Assembly: GCF_988243305.1 (NCBI RefSeq)
Contig: NZ_OZ547136.1
Reading direction: 5' to 3' (one strand)
Length of the DNA: 64,000 nt
The position numbers and the translations under genes are program-made. Positions within the stretch are counted from its first letter, which is position 1, and each line of letters opens with the position of its first letter. Of this stretch, positions 4,969-34,600 are shown piece by piece. The notes beneath the pieces are model-generated. The model did not search any database. It was not told the origin of the DNA and saw only the letters and a program-made list of their open reading frames with translations.

Positions 4969-6990
4969 ATGAAAATGACACGGCTTTATCCTCTGGCCTT
5001 GGGGGGATTATTGCTCCCCGCCATTGCTAATGCCCAGACTTCACAGCAAGACGAAAGCACGCTGGTGGTTACCGCCAGTAAACAATCTTCCCGCTCGGCA
5101 TCAGCCAACAACGTCTCGTCTACTGTTGTCAGCGCGCCGGAATTAAGCGACGCCGGCGTCACCGCCAGCGACAAACTCCCCAGAGTCTTGCCCGGGCTCA
5201 ATATTGAAAATAGCGGCAACATGCTTTTTTCGACGATCTCGCTACGCGGCGTCTCTTCAGCGCAGGACTTCTATAACCCCGCCGTCACCCTGTATGTCGA
5301 TGGCGTCCCTCAGCTTTCCACCAACACCATCCAGGCGCTTACCGATGTGCAAAGCGTGGAGTTGCTGCGAGGCCCACAGGGAACGTTATATGGCAAAAGC
5401 GCTCAGGGCGGGATCATCAACATCGTCACCCAGCAGCCGGACAGCACGCCGCGCGGCTATATTGAAGGCGGCGTCAGTAGCCGCGACAGTTATCGAAGTA
5501 AGTTCAACCTGAGCGGCCCCATTCAGGATGGCCTGCTGTACGGCAGCGTCACCCTGTTACGCCAGGTTGATGACGGCGACATGATTAACCCCGCGACGGG
5601 AAGCGATGACTTAGGCGGCACCCGCGCCAGCATAGGGAATGTGAAACTGCGTCTGGCGCCGGACGATCAGCCCTGGGAAATGGGCTTTGCCGCCTCACGC
5701 GAATGTACCCGCGCCACCCAGGACGCCTATGTGGGATGGAATGATATTAAGGGCCGTAAGCTGTCGATCAGCGATGGTTCACCAGACCCGTACATGCGGC
5801 GCTGCACTGACAGCCAGACCCTGAGTGGGAAATACACCACCGATGACTGGGTTTTCAACCTGATCAGCGCCTGGCAGCAGCAGCATTATTCGCGCACCTT
5901 CCCTTCCGGTTCGTTAATCGTCAATATGCCTCAGCGCTGGAATCAGGATGTGCAGGAGCTGCGCGCCGCAACCCTGGGCGATGCGCGTACCGTTGATATG
6001 GTGTTTGGGCTGTACCGGCAGAACACCCGCGAGAAGTTAAATTCAGCCTACGACATGCCGACAATGCCTTATTTAAGCAGTACCGGCTATACCACCGCTG
6101 AAACGCTGGCCGCATACAGTGACCTGACCTGGCATTTAACCGATCGTTTTGATATCGGCGGCGGCGTGCGCTTCTCGCATGATAAATCCAGTACACAATA
6201 TCACGGCAGCATGCTCGGCAACCCGTTTGGCGACCAGGGTAAGAGCAATGACGATCAGGTGCTCGGGCAGCTATCCGCAGGCTATATGCTGACCGATGAC
6301 TGGAGAGTGTATACCCGTGTAGCCCAGGGATATAAACCTTCCGGGTACAACATCGTGCCTACTGCGGGTCTTGATGCCAAACCGTTCGTCGCCGAGAAAT
6401 CCATCAACTATGAACTTGGCACCCGCTACGAAACCGCTGACGTCACGCTGCAAGCCGCGACGTTTTATACCCACACCAAAGACATGCAGCTTTACTCTGG
6501 CCCGGTCGAGATGCAGACATTAAGCAATGCGGGTAAAGCCGACGCCACCGGCGTTGAGCTTGAAGCGAAGTGGCGGTTTGCGCCAGGCTGGTCATGGGAT
6601 ATCAATGGCAACGTGATCCGTTCCGAATTCACCAATGACAGTGAGTTGTATCACGGTAACCGGGTGCCGTTCGTACCACGTTATGGCGCGGGAAGCAGCG
6701 TGAACGGCGTGATTGATACGCGCTATGGCGCACTGATGCCCCGACTGGCGGTTAATCTGGTCGGGCCGCATTATTTCGATGGCGACAACCAGTTGCGGCA
6801 AGGCACCTATGCCACCCTGGACAGCAGCCTGGGCTGGCAGGCGACTGAACGGATGAACATTTCCGTCTATGTCGATAACCTGTTCGACCGTCGTTACCGT
6901 ACCTATGGCTACATGAACGGCAGCAGCGCCGTCGCGCAGGTCAATATGGGTCGCACCGTCGGTATCAATACGCGAATTGATTTCTTCTGA
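4969..6990 (+). CDS. fyuA: TonB-dependent yersiniabactin/pesticin outer-membrane receptor FyuA (673 aa)
   Basis: Signal peptide, TonB-box region and C-terminal beta-barrel ending in aromatic residue F; 673 aa as expected. Confidence 0.9.
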   Translation: MKMTRLYPLALGGLLLPAIANAQTSQQDESTLVVTASKQSSRSASANNVSSTVVSAPELSDAGVTASDKLPRVLPGLNIENSGNMLFSTISLRGVSSAQDFYNPAVTLYVDGVPQLSTNTIQALTDVQSVELLRGPQGTLYGKSAQGGIINIVTQQPDSTPRGYIEGGVSSRDSYRSKFNLSGPIQDGLLYGSVTLLRQVDDGDMINPATGSDDLGGTRASIGNVKLRLAPDDQPWEMGFAASRECTRATQDAYVGWNDIKGRKLSISDGSPDPYMRRCTDSQTLSGKYTTDDWVFNLISAWQQQHYSRTFPSGSLIVNMPQRWNQDVQELRAATLGDARTVDMVFGLYRQNTREKLNSAYDMPTMPYLSSTGYTTAETLAAYSDLTWHLTDRFDIGGGVRFSHDKSSTQYHGSMLGNPFGDQGKSNDDQVLGQLSAGYMLTDDWRVYTRVAQGYKPSGYNIVPTAGLDAKPFVAEKSINYELGTRYETADVTLQAATFYTHTKDMQLYSGPVEMQTLSNAGKADATGVELEAKWRFAPGWSWDINGNVIRSEFTNDSELYHGNRVPFVPRYGAGSSVNGVIDTRYGALMPRLAVNLVGPHYFDGDNQLRQGTYATLDSSLGWQATERMNISVYVDNLFDRRYRTYGYMNGSSAVAQVNMGRTVGINTRIDFF

Positions 6991-6996
6991 TTATTG

Positions 6997-7027
6997 TAAA
7001 AGGGATACCGAAAAGGTATCCCTTTTA
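6997..7027 (+). terminator. Rho-independent terminator after fyuA
   Basis: AAAAGGGATACC-GAAA-AGGTATCCCTTTT hairpin directly after the stop codon. Confidence 0.6.
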
Positions 7028-7775
7028 CACCACTAGTTAAAACCAGTAACTCAGCAGAGTCGCAAAAAATATTAATCCATAGTGATTATTTAAACAATGA
7101 AATTGCGATTAGGATAAATAGATTTAACTTTCTCGTTCCTTTCTCTCCTTATACTAAAGAAATAATCATATCAAAATAAAAATTCACAACAGTGCAACAT
7201 TAAAAAATACAACCAACAAACAATCCTATATACAAGGCACATCTCCAGAATATAAAAGCACAGACAAACAACCTAAAAAAAACAACCCCATACATATAAA
7301 TTATTTTATAGGTAAAATAGATTATATATTCTCATAGCTACCACAAACTATACTAGCCTGAACTATATTTATTCTGCTGCAATCAATGCATACATAACAC
7401 AAATATCACTCAGGTACACTACTCAAACCACGCTGGGATTTTTCCTCAAGTTATAATCATCACCCCGAAAATCATTCGGCATTTACTCATTAAATAGTCA
7501 CCCCATAGGCCTGTACATGTTTACTCAGAAATATACATCCTTTTCTCTGTCATAAACCCTCTAATTAATCATAAATAAATACTTGTGACACCAATCTTTT
7601 TCCTTAACGGAACGAATTGTTGTGTAGAAGGAGATAATATTATGTCAAAAAAAATATCAGCCATTGCTTATAACTCATTATATGTCAACATGGGTCACTA
7701 TAACGGAAGCAGTTGAGATCACTACCAAAGCCATAAAACAAAAAAATTACTCCTAGCGATATTTATCGTCATGCC

Positions 7776-10484
7776 TTGAGTGGCAACATCCTACTATCGG
7801 TCTATTTCCAGTCTCCTGTGATACTTAAGAAGATACAAACTTTTAATGGAAAAATAAAATTCAGGCAGTTTGTGGGAGACCTACTTGATAAACTATGCAT
7901 GCTTGACAGGGACGGTTTTATTTATGGTCAAAATTTAAGACTCTGTACAGAAGCTAGATATATTTGTCCTGTGCAACAAATTATAGATACCCCCCTGTTA
8001 CGCAAACTCAACCAGTTTCGTACGTTTGTTCGTAATGTCCGCCCGGGTGATGAACTGGATGTCCCGGCACAAGTTAGTGAAAAAAATTTAACCCCGCCGC
8101 CGGGTAACAGCAGTGGCAACCTTGAGCAACAGATAGCCAGTACTTCACAGCTAATTGGATCTCTGCTCGCCGAAGATATGAACAGCGAGCAAGCGGCAAA
8201 CATAGCACGTGGATGGGCCTCTTCTCAGGCTTCAGGGGTAATGACAGACTGGTTAAGCCGCTTCGGTACCGCAAGAATCACGCTGGGCGTGGATGAAGAT
8301 TTCAGCCTGAAGAACTCCCGTGACGGCAACCCTCGAAAATGGCGATTCGATGCAACAAACAGTGAACTATGTGCCGAACGTCACGAATGCTGAAATCACG
8401 CTGGCAGCCTCGAAGGACCCGGTGATTGCCGACAATAACGATCTCACGACACTAACAGCACCGTCGCTGATACAGAGGGCAATGCGATAGCCAACACTGA
8501 GGTAACATTTACTCTACCGGAAGATGTGAAGGCGAACTTCACGCTGAGCGATGGCGACAAAGCGGTTACTGATGCCGATGGCAAAGCGAAAGTCACGCTG
8601 AAAGGTACAAAAGCAGGCGCTCATACCGTGACAGCATCGATGGTTGGCGGTAAGAGTGAGCAGTTGGTGGTGAACTTTACTGCGGATACGCTCACTACGC
8701 AGGTTAATCTTAACGTTACCGAGGACAATTTCATCGCCAATAACATTGGAATGACCAGGCTACAGGCAACAGTGACTGATGGAAACGGCAACCCAGTAGA
8801 AGGTATAAAAGTTAATTTCCGTGGAACCTCCGTCACGCTAAGCAGCACCAGCGTTGAAACGGATGATCAGGTTTTCGCTGAAATTCTTGTGACAAGCACC
8901 GAGGTCGGACTAAAAACAGTTTCAGCCTCTCTGGCAGATAAACCTACTGAAGTCATCTCGCGATTACTGAATGCCAAGGTAGATGTTAATTCTGCGACGA
9001 TTACCAGTCAGGAGATACCTGAAGGTCAGGTCATGGTCGCACAAGACATAGCAGTTAAAGCTCACGTTAACGACCAGTTTGGCAACCCGGTGACGCATCA
9101 ACCCGCGACATTCAGTGCAGCGCCATCCTCGCAAATGATCATCAGCCAGAATACGGTCTCTACTAATACGCAGGGAGTAGCCGAGGTCACCATGACGCCT
9201 GAAAGAAACGGCTCGTATACTGTAAAAGCATCCCTAGCGAATGGAGCTTCACTTGAGAAACAACTGGAGGCTATTGATGAAAAACTGACACTCACGTCCA
9301 GTCCGCTTATCGGTGTCAATGCTCCTAAAGGCGCTACTCTGACGGCAATGCTAACCTCTGCAAATGGCACTCCAGTGGAGGGTCAGGTCATCAACTTTAG
9401 CGTAACGCTAGAAGGTGCGACGTTAAGTGGCGGAAAAGTGAGAACCAACTCTTCAGGTCAGGCTCCAGTCGTTCTGACCAGCAATAAAGTCGGTACATAT
9501 ACGGTGACTGCATCGTTCCATAACGGCGTCACAATACAGACACAGACAACCGTGAAGGTTACTGGCAACCCAAGCACCGCACATGTTGCTAGCTTTATCG
9601 CTGAACCGTCGACTATCGCCGCCACCAACAGTGATTTAAGTACCTTAAAGGCAACGGTTGAGGATGGCAGTGGTAACCTGATCGAAGGTCTCACTGTGTA
9701 CTTCGCCTTAAAAAACGGCTCCACCACATTAACGTCATTAACAGCGGTGACCGATCAAAACGGAATCGCGACAACAAGCGTGAAAGGAGCGATAACGGGG
9801 AGCGTCACTGTAAGCACAGTCACAAGCGCAGGTGGAATGCAAACAGTAGATATATCGCTAGTGGCAGGCCCAGCAGACGCCTCGCAGTCCATCCTTAAGA
9901 ACAACCAGTCATCACTGAAAGGGGACTTTACCGATAGTGCTGAGCTACATCTTGTTCTGCACGATATATCAGGCAATCCGATCAAAGTTTCTGAAGGGAT
10001 GGAATTTGTGCAATCAGGTACAAACGTGCCCTATATGAAAATTAGCGCAATTGATTACACTCAAAATATCAACGGTGATTACAAAGCTACTGTTACAGGA
10101 GACGGAGAGGGTATCGCAACGCTGATCCCCGTATTGAATGGTGTTCATCAGGCGGGCCTGAGTACCACGATAGAATTCATTAGCGCGGAAACCAGACCAA
10201 TGACGGGTACAGTGTCAGTGAATAGTGCAAACCTACCGACAGCTTCATTCCCTTCGCAGGGATTTACCGGGGCGTATTATCAGTTGAATAATGACAACTT
10301 TGCACCAGGAAAAACGGCGGCTGATTATTCGTTTTCAAGCTCGGCCTCCTGGGTAGGCGTTGATGCTACTGGTAAAGTGACATTCAAAAATGACGGTGAT
10401 AGCAATACAGTAATAATCACAGCGCCCCCAAGATCCGGTGGTGCTATTTACCAAACAGTTCCTCCTGAATCGCGTTCGGTGTGA
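7776..10484 (+). pseudogene. yeeJ: Decayed inverse-autotransporter adhesin gene (yeeJ-like): N-terminal segment fused by a large internal deletion to C-terminal Big-domain repeats, with frameshift and premature stop
   Basis: ORF 7776-8393 has the LysM-linker/beta-domain start (LRKLNQFRTF...DELDVPAQVSEK...ARITLGVDEDFSLKNS); alternate frame at 8355-8460 continues as Big-repeat sequence (MQQTVNYVPNVTNAEITLAASKDP); one-base frameshift near 8459; ORF 8526-10484 is Big-repeat-rich and ends early. Total ~2.7 kb versus ~7 kb for the intact gene. Confidence 0.65.
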
Positions 10485-26897: not shown

Positions 26898-27258
26898 GTG
26901 GCCACTCTCTGCCATGTGTTCGGGGTCCATCGCAGCAGCTACAAATACTGGAAAAACCGTCCTGAAAAGCCAGACGGCAGACGGGCTGTATTACGCAGCC
27001 AGGTACTTGAACTACATGGCATCAGCCACGGCTCTGCCGGAGCAAGAAGCATCGCCACAATGGCAACCCAGAGAGACTACCAGATGGGGCGCTGGCTTGC
27101 TGGCAGACTCATGAAAGAGCTGGGGCTGGTCAGCTGTCAGCAGCCGACTTACCGGTATAAACGTGGTGGTCATGAACATGTTGCTATCCCTAACTACCTT
27201 GAACGGCAGTTCGCCGTGACCGAGCCAAATCAGGTGTGGTGCGGTGATGTGACCTATA
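26898..27258 (+). pseudogene. IS3-family transposase OrfB, 5' exon (interrupted by intron)
   Basis: ...[27 protein letters not shown] then frame diverges into intron. Confidence 0.7.
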
Positions 27259-29986
<2,728 letters not shown>

Positions 29987-30249: not shown

Positions 30250-30768
30250 TCATTCAGGGCAAAGTGCTAAAATTTCTCTATCCCGGGATGCCCCTACCAA
30301 CGCAGCACTCCCGGAGATATCATTACAGCTCTGCAACTGATTTCCGCGACTGAACCGCTCAGTTCCTATCCTTCCAGTTGCCTTCCTGCAGCCCCCCTCC
30401 CTGCTGTATACCCCGGTACCACAACGCGGGCAGCACTTTTCTCCTTCATAATCTTCGTCACACATCACACAAAACCACTTTCTCACCTTCACCGTATAAT
30501 CCGGAACCGTCATACCCTGCAGATGCAAACGACGGGCCTCTTTCTCTGCCGGGTCAAGCCAGGTGCATCGCAGCAGGATTTTCTCAGCGACAGTCATCTG
30601 GTCATGTTCAAACCACGGTGGTTGTCCGTCATTGCCCCGCTGAAGTGTTAACGGGCATCCACAGGACACACAGCACAAAACGTCCTGGCGGTTGTGCTTC
30701 GCTGCTTCTTTCGCCGTAACAAAATGGCCTTTGCTGTCATTCGCCATATAACAGTTCAGAATTCGCAT
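30250..30768 (-). CDS. Cys-rich hypothetical protein A (172 aa from ATG at 30768), paralog of B
   Basis: AGGAGG RBS 5 nt before ATG (MRILNCYMANDSKGHF); motifs CCVSCGC...PWFEH...FCVMCDEDYEGEKCCPRCG; ATG overlaps stop of B (ATGCGAATTCTGA). Confidence 0.45.
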   Translation of the reverse strand: MRILNCYMANDSKGHFVTAKEAAKHNRQDVLCCVSCGCPLTLQRGNDGQPPWFEHDQMTVAEKILLRCTWLDPAEKEARRLHLQGMTVPDYTVKVRKWFCVMCDEDYEGEKCCPRCGTGVYSREGGCRKATGRIGTERFSRGNQLQSCNDISGSAALVGASRDREILALCPE

Positions 30769-31163
30769 ATTTCCTCCTGAGTTGTCCGGGGAATACTGAA
30801 TCCTCCGGTCTGGCAGTGTGTGCAGTACCGCTCCCCATAATAATCGTGGTGACATTGTCTGCAGTGCCAGCTGGCTTTACGCACCACGGGTAAGGCATCC
30901 GGTACGAATTGCTGCAGACGTTTAATCAACTGTATTTCTCTGCGCTCCGGCCTGACATAAGGGCACTGTTGACCGTGCTCTGTCAGCCTGTCGTCAGTGT
31001 GTTCAAACCAGGGAAGTTCAGTGTCGTATTGCGGATGGTATCTGAGTGCACTGCCACACAAGTGGCAGGTGTAGTTAGCATAAGGTGCGGCCTGTGCAGT
31101 ACGGGCGCCCGTCAGACGTCCGTTGCCATCAAGAGCGATAAAGGATTTTGCGTACATAGTCAT
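30756..31163 (-). CDS. Cys-rich hypothetical protein B (135 aa), putative zinc-ribbon protein
   Basis: GAGGA RBS; motifs CHLCGS...PWFEH...WHCRQCHHDYYGERYCTHCQTG; stop overlaps start of downstream paralog. Confidence 0.45.
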   Translation of the reverse strand: MTMYAKSFIALDGNGRLTGARTAQAAPYANYTCHLCGSALRYHPQYDTELPWFEHTDDRLTEHGQQCPYVRPERREIQLIKRLQQFVPDALPVVRKASWHCRQCHHDYYGERYCTHCQTGGFSIPRTTQEEICEF

Positions 31164-31416
31164 ATTCCTCAGCCGCCAGACGACACGCAGGCAACAGCCG
31201 TCCCGGTACGGGCAGCGTGGTCAGGGTGTGAATGGCGGTTCAGTTAAAATCTGGACTGGAGTTTGGGTAAAGCAGGCTGGTTGCTGTTACAGCACTGTGG
31301 TTGTCACACAATGGAACACTGACGTAAAAAACAGTCAGTGGGCGAGTGGATACATCGTTGCCGCCAGACAACAACCCATACTTTTGGTTTGCCGGATATT
31401 GGCGCGCCAGTCGTGC

Positions 31417-31986
31417 TCAACTCCGGCTACAGCCAAAATTGCGCTCACCGGTGCAGTGAGCTTTGGTATGTTCCTTCGCCAGATAGTCAGCACGTTCCAG
31501 CACCTGCTGAAAGCCAGTGTCATCATCGCGTTCCAGCCACACCGCCGGCCAGGCCGGAAAATGCACCAGCGTGGCATGGCACCCGACATCCACTCCCAGG
31601 GCACTGCACCACGCCTGTTTAATCATCCCGGCCAGTGATCCCGGAGCACGGTAATCACCGGCACGACACCAGGTATCCCGGTTAACCAGCAGCATCAGGT
31701 GATAGTGTTTTTTACCTTTGCACTCCCCAAACTCCCGGGCCCAGACGTAATGCAGGGTGGTGGGATGCACGCGTTTACCTTCCCGATGCTTACGTTTCTG
31801 GTAAGCGTCGATTCGGGCTTTCAGGGCATTGATGAAGCGGGATATCACAGCTGCGTCCGTTGCTGCCGGTACATCCGGGAAACGCAGGTCAACCCGCAAT
31901 GCCGTCAGGCGGGGATGAACATTCAGTGCGTGCCGCACCGTCTCACGAATACGTTGCTGCCAGAAGGGGTTGTATTTGTAGGTCAT
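31417..31986 (-). CDS. YfjJ/YagK-like protein (inovirus Gp2-type replication-protein family)
   Basis: MTYKYNPFWQQRIRETVRHALNVHPRLTALRVDLRFPD...; GGAGA RBS before this ATG; track ORF starts at an upstream GTG. Confidence 0.55.
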   Translation of the reverse strand: MTYKYNPFWQQRIRETVRHALNVHPRLTALRVDLRFPDVPAATDAAVISRFINALKARIDAYQKRKHREGKRVHPTTLHYVWAREFGECKGKKHYHLMLLVNRDTWCRAGDYRAPGSLAGMIKQAWCSALGVDVGCHATLVHFPAWPAVWLERDDDTGFQQVLERADYLAKEHTKAHCTGERNFGCSRS

Positions 31987-32184
31987 GGTTAAATCTCCGT
32001 ATGGTTCATACGGAATAGCCACGTCGTAAAAAATGCGCAGAGTCCCTGAAGTGACCTCCGGCAGGACACTGTCTCAGGCACTCTGTGATACCCCAACTAT
32101 CGTCTCCGGACTGACGGTTGAATTTTCAGCGTTGTTTTTTTAATGTAAAAAACCGGTTACGGGTAAGGCTGTGAGGAGGGAGTT

Positions 32185-32382
32185 ATGGTGATACGCAAAA
32201 AGAAGTGCAGGGACTGTGGAAACGCGATTACTCATAATACATGTTGCCCGTATTGTGGTTCTGTCGACCCCTTCGGCTATTACCGGAATACAGACCGTAT
32301 CGTTACCATACTGCTGGCACTGATTATTGTGGTCCTGCTGACTACTGTCAGCGTCAGTGTGTATATACTGTGTAGCTGGTGA
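32185..32382 (+). CDS. Small zinc-ribbon membrane protein (65 aa)
   Basis: Strong AGGAGG RBS; CxxC-N11-CxxC followed by one hydrophobic helix. Confidence 0.4.
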   Translation: MVIRKKKCRDCGNAITHNTCCPYCGSVDPFGYYRNTDRIVTILLALIIVVLLTTVSVSVYILCSW

Positions 32383-33704: not shown

Positions 33705-33911
33705 ATGCTCACCCCAGTTTCACTGATGGATGGCCAGATGGTCGACATGGCATTTATCACTCAACTGACCGGCCTGACCGATAAGTGGTTTTACAAACTC
33801 ATCAAGGATGGTGACTTTCCTGCGCCCATCAAAATGGGCCGCAGCTCCCGATGGCTGAAAAGCGAAGTGGAAGCCTGGCTGCAGGCGCGTATTGCACAGT
33901 CCCGTCCGTAA
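33705..33911 (+). CDS. alpA: AlpA-family transcriptional regulator (about 68 aa)
   Basis: ...ITQLTGLTDKWFYKLIKDGDFPAPIKMGRSSRWLKSEVEAWLQAR (AlpA/MerR-like HTH). Confidence 0.6.
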   Translation: MLTPVSLMDGQMVDMAFITQLTGLTDKWFYKLIKDGDFPAPIKMGRSSRWLKSEVEAWLQARIAQSRP

Positions 33912-33991: not shown

Positions 33992-34600
33992 ATGAAAATG
34001 AAACCACAGTATCAGACCCGTTACGAGCTGCTCCACGAAAGCTACCAGAAATGGCTGACCGGCTTCACCCGGCACGCCGTATCCTGGGGCGTGTGTCATC
34101 CGAATATCTACTACTTCCATAATCTGACGCCCGGGTGGGTGTCATTCAATGGTGAAAAACCGGAGATTGCCATCGTACCCCAGAGTCTGCACCGGCTGAT
34201 TTATGGTCCGGACAAACGGACCACGCCGCCCCTGGATGATGATCTGATAGTGAATTTATGCACCAGTGAACATCTGCTGGTTCATCATCCGATGCTGGAA
34301 GGCATTCTCCTGTCTGAATGTGAACGTCTGAGGCAGCGTTCGCTGGCAAATAAACTGATCATCCTCTTCCGTCAGTTTGGTGGCACGGAGTTGCGCCTCA
34401 AACTGGTCTGGCTTTGCTGGCTTGATTTAATGACCGGAAACTGCCTTGACGACTGGACGGAGAATCTGAAACGGAAATCAGAAAAAGAGCTGGAGGAATG
34501 GATCATCAACCGTCAGAAGCAGAGCGCAGCACTGACGGATCTGATGGATCAGTACGTGCTCCTGGCATACCGCACAACGGTTGACGATAAGCGCACCTGA
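33992..34600 (+). CDS. Hypothetical protein (202 aa)
   Basis: GAGGAA RBS before ATG (MKMKPQYQTRYELLHESYQKWL); no family recognised. Confidence 0.4.
   Translation: MKMKPQYQTRYELLHESYQKWLTGFTRHAVSWGVCHPNIYYFHNLTPGWVSFNGEKPEIAIVPQSLHRLIYGPDKRTTPPLDDDLIVNLCTSEHLLVHHPMLEGILLSECERLRQRSLANKLIILFRQFGGTELRLKLVWLCWLDLMTGNCLDDWTENLKRKSEKELEEWIINRQKQSAALTDLMDQYVLLAYRTTVDDKRT

Follow-up and report, generated by a model that had tools for sequence, protein, structure and literature searches.

We describe a pair of small overlapping genes, here ORF-A and ORF-B (open reading frames A and B), in a stretch of 64,000 nucleotides from NCBI RefSeq assembly GCF_988243305.1, contig NZ_OZ547136.1 (the window). The pair encodes paralogous members of a little-noticed zinc-finger family and is a component of a conserved module, together with Gp2-like (YfjJ) and AlpA genes, of genomic islands of the CP4-57/CP4-44 type in Enterobacterales; it belongs to the backbone of these islands and not to their cargo. 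The window holds a CP4-44-type island adjoining cobU, in which the genes of interest are the following.

30756 to 31163, minus strand: ORF-A, 135 amino acids in the longest reading; a clade A ('MYAKSF') protein with DUF7828 and Zn_ribbon_11 domains, called 'putative zinc ribbon protein' by PGAP (WP_000270974.1).
30250 to 30768, minus strand: ORF-B, 172 amino acids as read here; a clade B ('MRILNCY') protein with DUF7828 and Zn_ribbon_11 domains.
31417 to 32022 (PGAP-equivalent start 31986), minus strand: a YfjJ/YagK-type gene, named 'inovirus Gp2 family' by PGAP (YagK_YfjJ_C, E 1e-47; REP_ORF2-G2P, E 5e-5).
33705 to 33911, plus strand: an AlpA-family (P4 Vis-like) regulator/excisionase gene (Pfam Phage_AlpA, E 1.3e-8), here on the strand opposite to A and B.

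The case for a backbone role comes from gene neighbourhoods. A degenerate DNA pattern (WFEH...WxCxxC...CxxC), run against one genome per species, matched both window ORFs and 0 of 100 shuffled sequences, and found 54 loci. An AlpA-like or YfjJ/Gp2-like gene lies at most 1.5 kb from the family gene in 43 of them, and the 65 neighbours of this kind share, without exception, the strand of the family gene; AlpA homologues flank the family in 34 of the 54. In most of the other 11 loci, the sequence breaks off close to the gene or an AlpA-like gene lies 1.6-2.8 kb from it. Of 5426 complete E. coli genomes, 2970 contain the pair as a unit, with up to 7 copies in one genome, and 3238 (60%) contain the contiguous trio YfjJ-A-B.

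The order of the module varies. In the window, insertion sequence (IS) and group II intron debris is followed by B, A and the YfjJ-like gene, all on the minus strand, so that the YfjJ-like gene lies directly upstream of the pair and is co-directional with it; then come a small ORF and, further on, AlpA and a gene for a 200-amino acid protein on the plus strand, YfjI on the minus strand, and a GTPase gene and Ag43 on the plus strand. Elsewhere, across many genera, we found YfjJ-AlpA-zinc-finger gene, YfjJ-AlpA-A-B-YfjJ' (also on Klebsiella IncFIB/IncHI1B plasmids) and AlpA-200-amino acid protein-zinc-finger gene-YfjJ, with or without a YfjJ' in front. Because the family gene is so often near AlpA or YfjJ genes, always co-directional with them and often between them, the pair is shown to be part of the island backbone, and the retention of this adjacency through several rearrangements points to a functional linkage with the module. 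The preliminary description of the window, made from the letters alone, had assigned the pair to variable cargo; the neighbourhood survey it proposed did yield an association, with AlpA and YfjJ/Gp2-like genes. One fully laid out plasmid example, Klebsiella pneumoniae pRWS291.s3 (NZ_CP110517.1, IncFIB/IncHI1B), carries at 5753-9151 a Gp2-like gene, AlpA, A, B and a second Gp2-like gene, followed by a DUF2913 gene. In all, the family occurs on 33 of 72,556 plasmid records, some of which are chromosome-sized (1-5 Mb).

The location of the pair also bears on whether it could be a self-contained cargo module for anti-phage defence, anti-defence or addiction (toxin-antitoxin), the setting the preliminary description had in mind. 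Two small overlapping genes do look like a toxin-antitoxin layout, but A and B are paralogues of one fold and match no known family of this kind in Pfam, NCBIfam or PADLOC, whereas a type II toxin-antitoxin system is expected to pair two unrelated proteins and to match a known family; moreover, the B type stands single in 18 loci. The pair sits where cargo starts in related islands (in K-12 CP4-57, yfjJ is directly followed by the abpBA anti-phage genes), and some islands manage without the family; in many genera, however, the gene sits amid backbone genes, between AlpA and YfjJ and outside the variable region. A further point in favour of such a module is a metagenome contig (2763-5760) on which a single B-type gene is followed by an HTH_26 gene, a 114-amino acid gene without a Pfam match and a gene for DUF3375, which we take to be the JetA family of Wadjet; this layout suggests that cargo begins immediately after the zinc-finger gene. 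Defence systems catalogued in PADLOC-DB 2.0 are recognized by model matches and by residence in cargo or hotspots, and A and B show neither: scans against NCBIfam, PADLOC and PHROGs gave no match below E 0.07, with PDC-S64 (E 0.22) the single hit among the PADLOC-DB 2.0 defence models. A tblastn search found no homologue in 50,697 phage records, and Pfam identified no catalytic or membrane-effector domain in either protein. We consider a defence or addiction function unlikely.

The arrangement of the two genes is largely as first described: both ORFs, with readings of 135 and 172 amino acids, are on the minus strand, each has its own Shine-Dalgarno sequence, and the stop of the upstream gene overlaps the start of the downstream gene. 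The signals, the last two of which were read from the sequence, are these.

30756 to 30768, minus strand: the 13-nt overlap of A and B, ATGCGAATTCTGA, with the start of B inside the end of A.
30773-30778, minus strand: AGGAGG, Shine-Dalgarno sequence of B, 4 nt before the B ATG.
31166 to 31170, minus strand: GAGGA, Shine-Dalgarno sequence of A, separated by 2 nt from the ATG at 31163 and by 8 nt from that at 31157.

The B ATG is situated 10 nt ahead of the A TGA, as read from the sequence. We place the start of A most likely at the ATG at 31157, giving 133 amino acids instead of 135, because homologues and PGAP begin at MYAKSF and because GAGGA is then spaced by 8 nt rather than 2 nt. The two proteins share 31% identity (BLASTP, E 1e-15) and the same two Pfam domains and are tandem paralogues, as had been proposed. 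The motifs noted at that time, CxxC, PWFEH and a C-terminal WxCxxC...CxxC cluster, are common to both, with a correction to the spacing of the cluster, which is W-x-C-x2-C-x2-DY-x-GE-x2-C-x2-C (x2 and x2 in place of x4 and x).

By their profile matches, A and B are ordinary members of an already catalogued domain-of-unknown-function family, and they match no toxin-antitoxin, defence or Ogr/Delta family. ORF-A matches DUF7828 (PF25165; E 2.8e-31) and Zn_ribbon_11 (PF11682, formerly DUF3279; E 1.3e-9) and ORF-B matches the same domains (1.5e-30 and 1.5e-16), which Pfam also found in all 37 diverse family members that we aligned. Both are full-length members, the frameshifted tail of the window B being the sole departure, and the sizes of A (133-135 amino acids) and native B (136 amino acids) fall within the roughly 120-160 amino acids of the stand-alone family. 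The preliminary view of zinc-ribbon-like proteins without a studied function stands, as we found no paper on them, although the family itself is catalogued and not, as had been thought, unrecognized. Its database names include 'putative zinc ribbon protein' (PGAP), 'Ybl85' (UniProt), 'DUF3279' and, in some UniProt entries, 'RNA polymerase beta subunit', a label backed by none of our searches. Identical proteins are found in thousands of E. coli genomes; nevertheless, the family is small, with 282 clusters at E <= 0.001 in a profile search of 1.84 billion representatives. Among the best 150 of these clusters, for which sequences of 110-250 amino acids were read, all were short stand-alone proteins or fragments, with the exception of one protein of 238 amino acids that has an additional copy of the N-terminal domain.

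In the 37-member alignment, C33, C36, F53, H55, W99, C101, C104, C114 and C117 (A numbering) are invariant and C67, G110 and G120 nearly so. These residues include two predicted zinc sites, a C2HC site in the N-terminal domain (C33, C36, H55 and C67; C-x2-C-x18-H-x11-C) and a C4 site in the ribbon (C101, C104, C114 and C117; C-x2-C-x9-C-x2-C), and the ligands are conserved across members of just 25-30% identity. In an AlphaFold2 model of A (predicted local distance difference score, pLDDT, 81; predicted template modelling score, pTM, 0.68), the finger, the ribbon and a helix linking them take up all 135 amino acids.

All 54 loci are in Enterobacterales except for two contigs of a metagenome-assembled genome (MAG) labelled 'Collinsella sp.' (Map_57_008). 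The A and B genes on these contigs group closely with those of E. coli in our tree; the contigs are almost certainly mis-binned Escherichia DNA. By these matches, the family is confined to Enterobacterales. K-12 is without any member of the zinc-finger family, which fits both the absence of E. coli among the species-representative matches and the lack of a y-gene name. K-12 yoeG, yoeH and yeeH were considered as remnants of the pair and ruled out, since neither blastn, tblastn nor hidden Markov model (HMM) searches gave a match.

Three clades emerge in a neighbour-joining tree: A ('MYAKSF'), a broad B ('MRxLKCYLAN') and a small C. In each of the 13 clear pairs, the clade A gene precedes a B or C gene; six of these pairs overlap by 13 or 10 nt, and one further pair overlaps by 23 nt as called. 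The 13- or 10-nt overlap was seen in Hafnia, Siccibacter, Superficieibacter, Serratia, Pseudocitrobacter, an uncultured Enterobacteriaceae MAG and a Klebsiella plasmid. B is the only family gene in 18 loci; in two others only A is present, and no trace of a partner remains. As judged from the tree and the gene order, A and B are shown to be an ancient, ordered duplication. The preliminary description had treated conservation as a unit as decisive for its proposal; here the answer is divided, given that the A-then-B pair is kept in many genera and B alone is equally common. The ratio of nonsynonymous to synonymous substitution rates (dN/dS), at 0.10-0.34 in 12 of 13 computable comparisons and 0.5 in one, shows that both genes evolve under purifying selection.

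The length of ORF-B in the window needs comment. The 172 amino acids first reported are a frameshift artefact, an out-of-frame read-through, because one G has been lost relative to the otherwise identical allele of strain THO-010.

30392 to 30397, minus strand: a homopolymer run of G (coding strand), six long here and seven long in intact alleles; the difference is a -1 frameshift.

Over 914 nt, the sole difference between THO-010 and the window is this one base, G7 instead of G6, and the THO-010 protein (WP_001221617.1) is the native form of 136 amino acids, with the C-terminal end GGLQEGNWKDRN directly before the stop (the end is also given as SREGGLQEGNWKDRN); the native stop is the TGA at window positions 30361-30359. 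PGAP labels the identical B sequence in strain cq9 'zinc-ribbon domain-containing protein, frameshifted'. B alleles are alike to about residue 124, where the zinc ribbon ends, and differ thereafter; the window B is out of frame beyond this point, with DUF7828 and Zn_ribbon_11 both intact. Forms of 144 and 135 amino acids make up large database clusters, and intact alleles of 136 and 144 amino acids are found in strains THO-010 and DEC5A. The G6/G7 difference could be slippage-prone variation, or a homopolymer sequencing error in some assemblies. The G6 form, with 100% identity to the window in this region, is listed for at least 25 complete E. coli genomes; others have G7.

This frameshift raises the question of whether the pair is no more than the decaying remains of a cryptic element, without present function at least in the window. 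The region around the pair has been eroded by IS elements and a group II intron, and many truncated, fused or chimeric versions are in the databases. Against decay, the frameshift lies beyond the last domain and the intact 136- and 144-amino acid alleles dominate the protein clusters; both clades have dN/dS values far below 1, the overlap of stop and start has been retained, and the eight zinc ligands are all invariant or nearly so across genera. A relic is therefore, in our estimation, very improbable.

The altered database versions are of some interest themselves. Four singleton proteins and the chimeras in one alignment represent fusions of A with B, one fusion of YfjJ with B, and A/B or B/B chimeras whose junctions fall in homologous motifs such as WFEH; they point to deletions and recombination between the tandem paralogues. 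We considered Gp2-zinc-finger and A-B 'fusion' proteins as natural fusions and rejected them as rare singleton deletion products.

What might the two proteins do? The closest likeness is to CoiA. A and B share with the CoiA family (PF06054) an N-terminal zinc-finger domain and lack its PD-(D/E)XK nuclease domain; fold searches gave CoiA-type fingers, weak Pfam matches to CoiA_N (PF25164) were found in 8 of the 37 members, and no Pfam match to PF06054 itself was obtained for A, B or the 37 members. Of the fold-level checks that had been suggested, the Foldseek search of AFDB50 was uninformative, as all 50 matches listed were members of the family itself, and a sequence search of the PDB returned just a chance match to a ribosomal protein (E 0.87). 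The pattern of the N-terminal domain, a short beta-hairpin lead-in, CxxC, about 16 residues, aromatic-F-x-H and one more ligand, is presumably that of CoiA as well. The CoiA nuclease is needed for the resolution of transformation D-loops, and its N-terminus is a small putative zinc finger (bioRxiv 10.1101/2024.02.06.579203) with the nuclease domain beginning at residue 56 (PMC1189080). There are clear differences: CoiA proteins are 290-430 amino acids long and include a nuclease, whereas A and B, at about 135 amino acids, have none and end in a C4 zinc ribbon; the CoiA finger is described as C2H2, whereas the fourth ligand of A and B is Cys (C2HC); and CoiA is in the competence regulon, whereas A and B are in a genomic-island module.

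We tentatively favour a model in which A and B are zinc-finger accessory factors for the island's own DNA transactions, a reading that we hold to be quite possible though not yet probable. The pair is in the island core beside an excision regulator and a replication-type gene, and thus probably serves the handling of island DNA. In this model, A and B would each bind two zinc ions and would act non-enzymatically, as nucleic-acid-binding or protein-bridging accessories, in island excision, replication or transfer. B would be the basic unit and could function by itself, presumably as a homo-oligomer; A would be a derived partner that acts together with B. Their most likely role, by analogy, would be in the recognition of island DNA, assisting either the YfjJ-type rolling-circle-initiator-like protein or the excision step under AlpA control: as CoiA has a finger in front of a nuclease in one chain, the finger here may guide the neighbouring YfjJ-type initiator.

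Several observations weigh against this model. The K-12 islands CP4-57, CP4-6 and CP4-44 have YfjJ/YagK and AlpA and are without a family member; these relatives of the module indicate that the family is accessory to it, not essential. The calculated isoelectric points (pI) of 5.5-9.0 are near neutral, and many DNA binders are strongly basic. The A-B heterodimer that the preliminary description had suggested modelling was run in AlphaFold2 as a crude test, an A-(GGGGS)6-B fusion with an artificial linker and a paired alignment of 14 rows, and gave a pTM of 0.34 and no confident A-B interface. Finally, literature searches with the family names, accessions and Pfam identifiers found nothing relevant, and we found no experimental literature on YfjJ-like proteins.

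A bolder form of the accessory model makes A and B the DNA-recognition subunits of a split nuclease, with a CoiA-type finger acting in trans to direct YfjJ to a site in the island once this has been excised and so start rolling-circle replication or single-strand transfer. We regard this as a decidedly long shot. If true, an unrecognized active mobility module, made up of Gp2-like, AlpA, A, B and Gp2-like genes, would be common to the 'cryptic P4-like prophages' and to numerous pathogenicity islands in E. coli, Shigella, Salmonella and Klebsiella.

It is also possible, although rather unlikely, that A and B are transcription factors of the zinc-finger type, activating genes of the island, its cargo or a helper, in the manner of P2 Ogr and P4 Delta or of RNA polymerase binders of the TraR/DksA type. 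Ogr and Delta are likewise small zinc-finger proteins of P4-type elements, and P4 Delta is a tandem duplication of the Ogr-type finger, which the tandem duplication of A and B parallels. The island backbone is of the P4 type, with an AlpA/Vis-like gene and YfjI/DUF3987. The proteins are small, with two predicted metal sites and no enzymatic domain, and their near-neutral pI would suit a protein-binding role. However, the likeness to Ogr/Delta does not extend to sequence or fold: A and B do not have the C-x2-C-x22-C-x4-C spacing of Ogr/Delta (PF04606), no Pfam match to Ogr_Delta or zf-dskA_traR was found for A and B, even at E <= 10, or in the 37 members, and the fold searches did not return Ogr or TraR. 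In addition, islands with A and B have no late operons and no capsid or helper-exploiting genes.

Other features of the region are the following.

32122 to 32149, minus strand: promoter-like site TTTACA-16-GAAAAT, upstream of the YfjJ-like gene (consensus scan; such sites are no more numerous than in shuffled sequence).
33998 to 34600, plus strand: gene for the 200-amino acid protein WP_000804452.1, downstream of AlpA, with no Pfam match.

The same consensus scan found no promoter-like and no minus-strand terminator-like site between the YfjJ-like gene and ORF-A. This 253-nt spacer contains a 14-nt direct repeat, GCCGCCAGAC(G/A)ACA, at 31172-31185 and 31360-31373, with one copy abutting the Shine-Dalgarno sequence of A; as a conserved site it was rejected, its 10-nt core GTCTGGCGGC being present, among the fetched loci, in those from E. 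coli only. The 200-amino acid protein, which is between AlpA and the zinc-finger gene in several other genera, adjoins AlpA across many genera (also in seven further loci) and is an unstudied backbone protein. Divergent from the YfjJ-like gene, a 65-amino acid ORF (32185-32382, plus strand) encodes a CxxC...CxxC protein with a hydrophobic, membrane-like tail (MVIRKKKCRDCGN...CCPYCGS...LLALIIVVLLTTVSVSVYILCSW); it is hypothetical according to PGAP (WP_001427456.1), has a homologue in cq9 and DEC5A, and matches no NCBIfam model. On the other side of the pair, an IS3-family transposase gene is split (26898-27323 and 29591-29986) by a group II intron, the whole spanning 26898-29986; the intron includes a reverse transcriptase/maturase ORF at 27915-29438 (TIGR04416, E 9e-102) and the Rfam match Intron_gpII at 29442-29528.

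Related arrangements have been reported. In Pseudomonas, tmRNA-inserted islands carry an inovirus Gp2-like gene beside alpA, for which a core function has been suggested; this widespread island class also has RadC and defence cargo, and islands with the Gp2-AlpA end module are moved by a jumbo phage (PNAS 2025, PMC12595487). That end module resembles the one in the window but is without a zinc-ribbon gene (the word 'zinc' occurs 0 times in the article); we found the zinc-finger family in Enterobacterales only. The SRL island of Shigella flexneri has, from orf38 to orf47, the same gene order as the window: IS66 genes, orf38 ('no similarity/hypothetical'), orf39 (YfjJ/Gp2), orf40 (Hha), orf41 (Vis/AlpA), hypotheticals, YeeP and Ag43 (PMC6980539). 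By position alone, orf38 would be a family member. Three aspects appear to be absent from the literature: a CoiA-type finger joined to a ribbon and free of a nuclease, the ordered A-then-B duplication, and the placement of such genes within the Gp2-AlpA module.

Backbones of this type bear Ag43, toxin-antitoxin pairs, anti-restriction genes, defence systems and virulence or resistance cargo, and about 60-70% of complete E. coli genomes have the YfjJ-A-B trio, often in several copies. Nevertheless, the excision, replication and movement of these 'cryptic' islands are poorly understood, and YfjJ-like proteins and the zinc-finger family are both unstudied; that K-12 is without the family is probably why it has been neglected. 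With its placement in the Gp2-AlpA module and its tie to the CoiA finger, the pair leaves the list of candidate defence and addiction systems and offers a concrete handle on the module.

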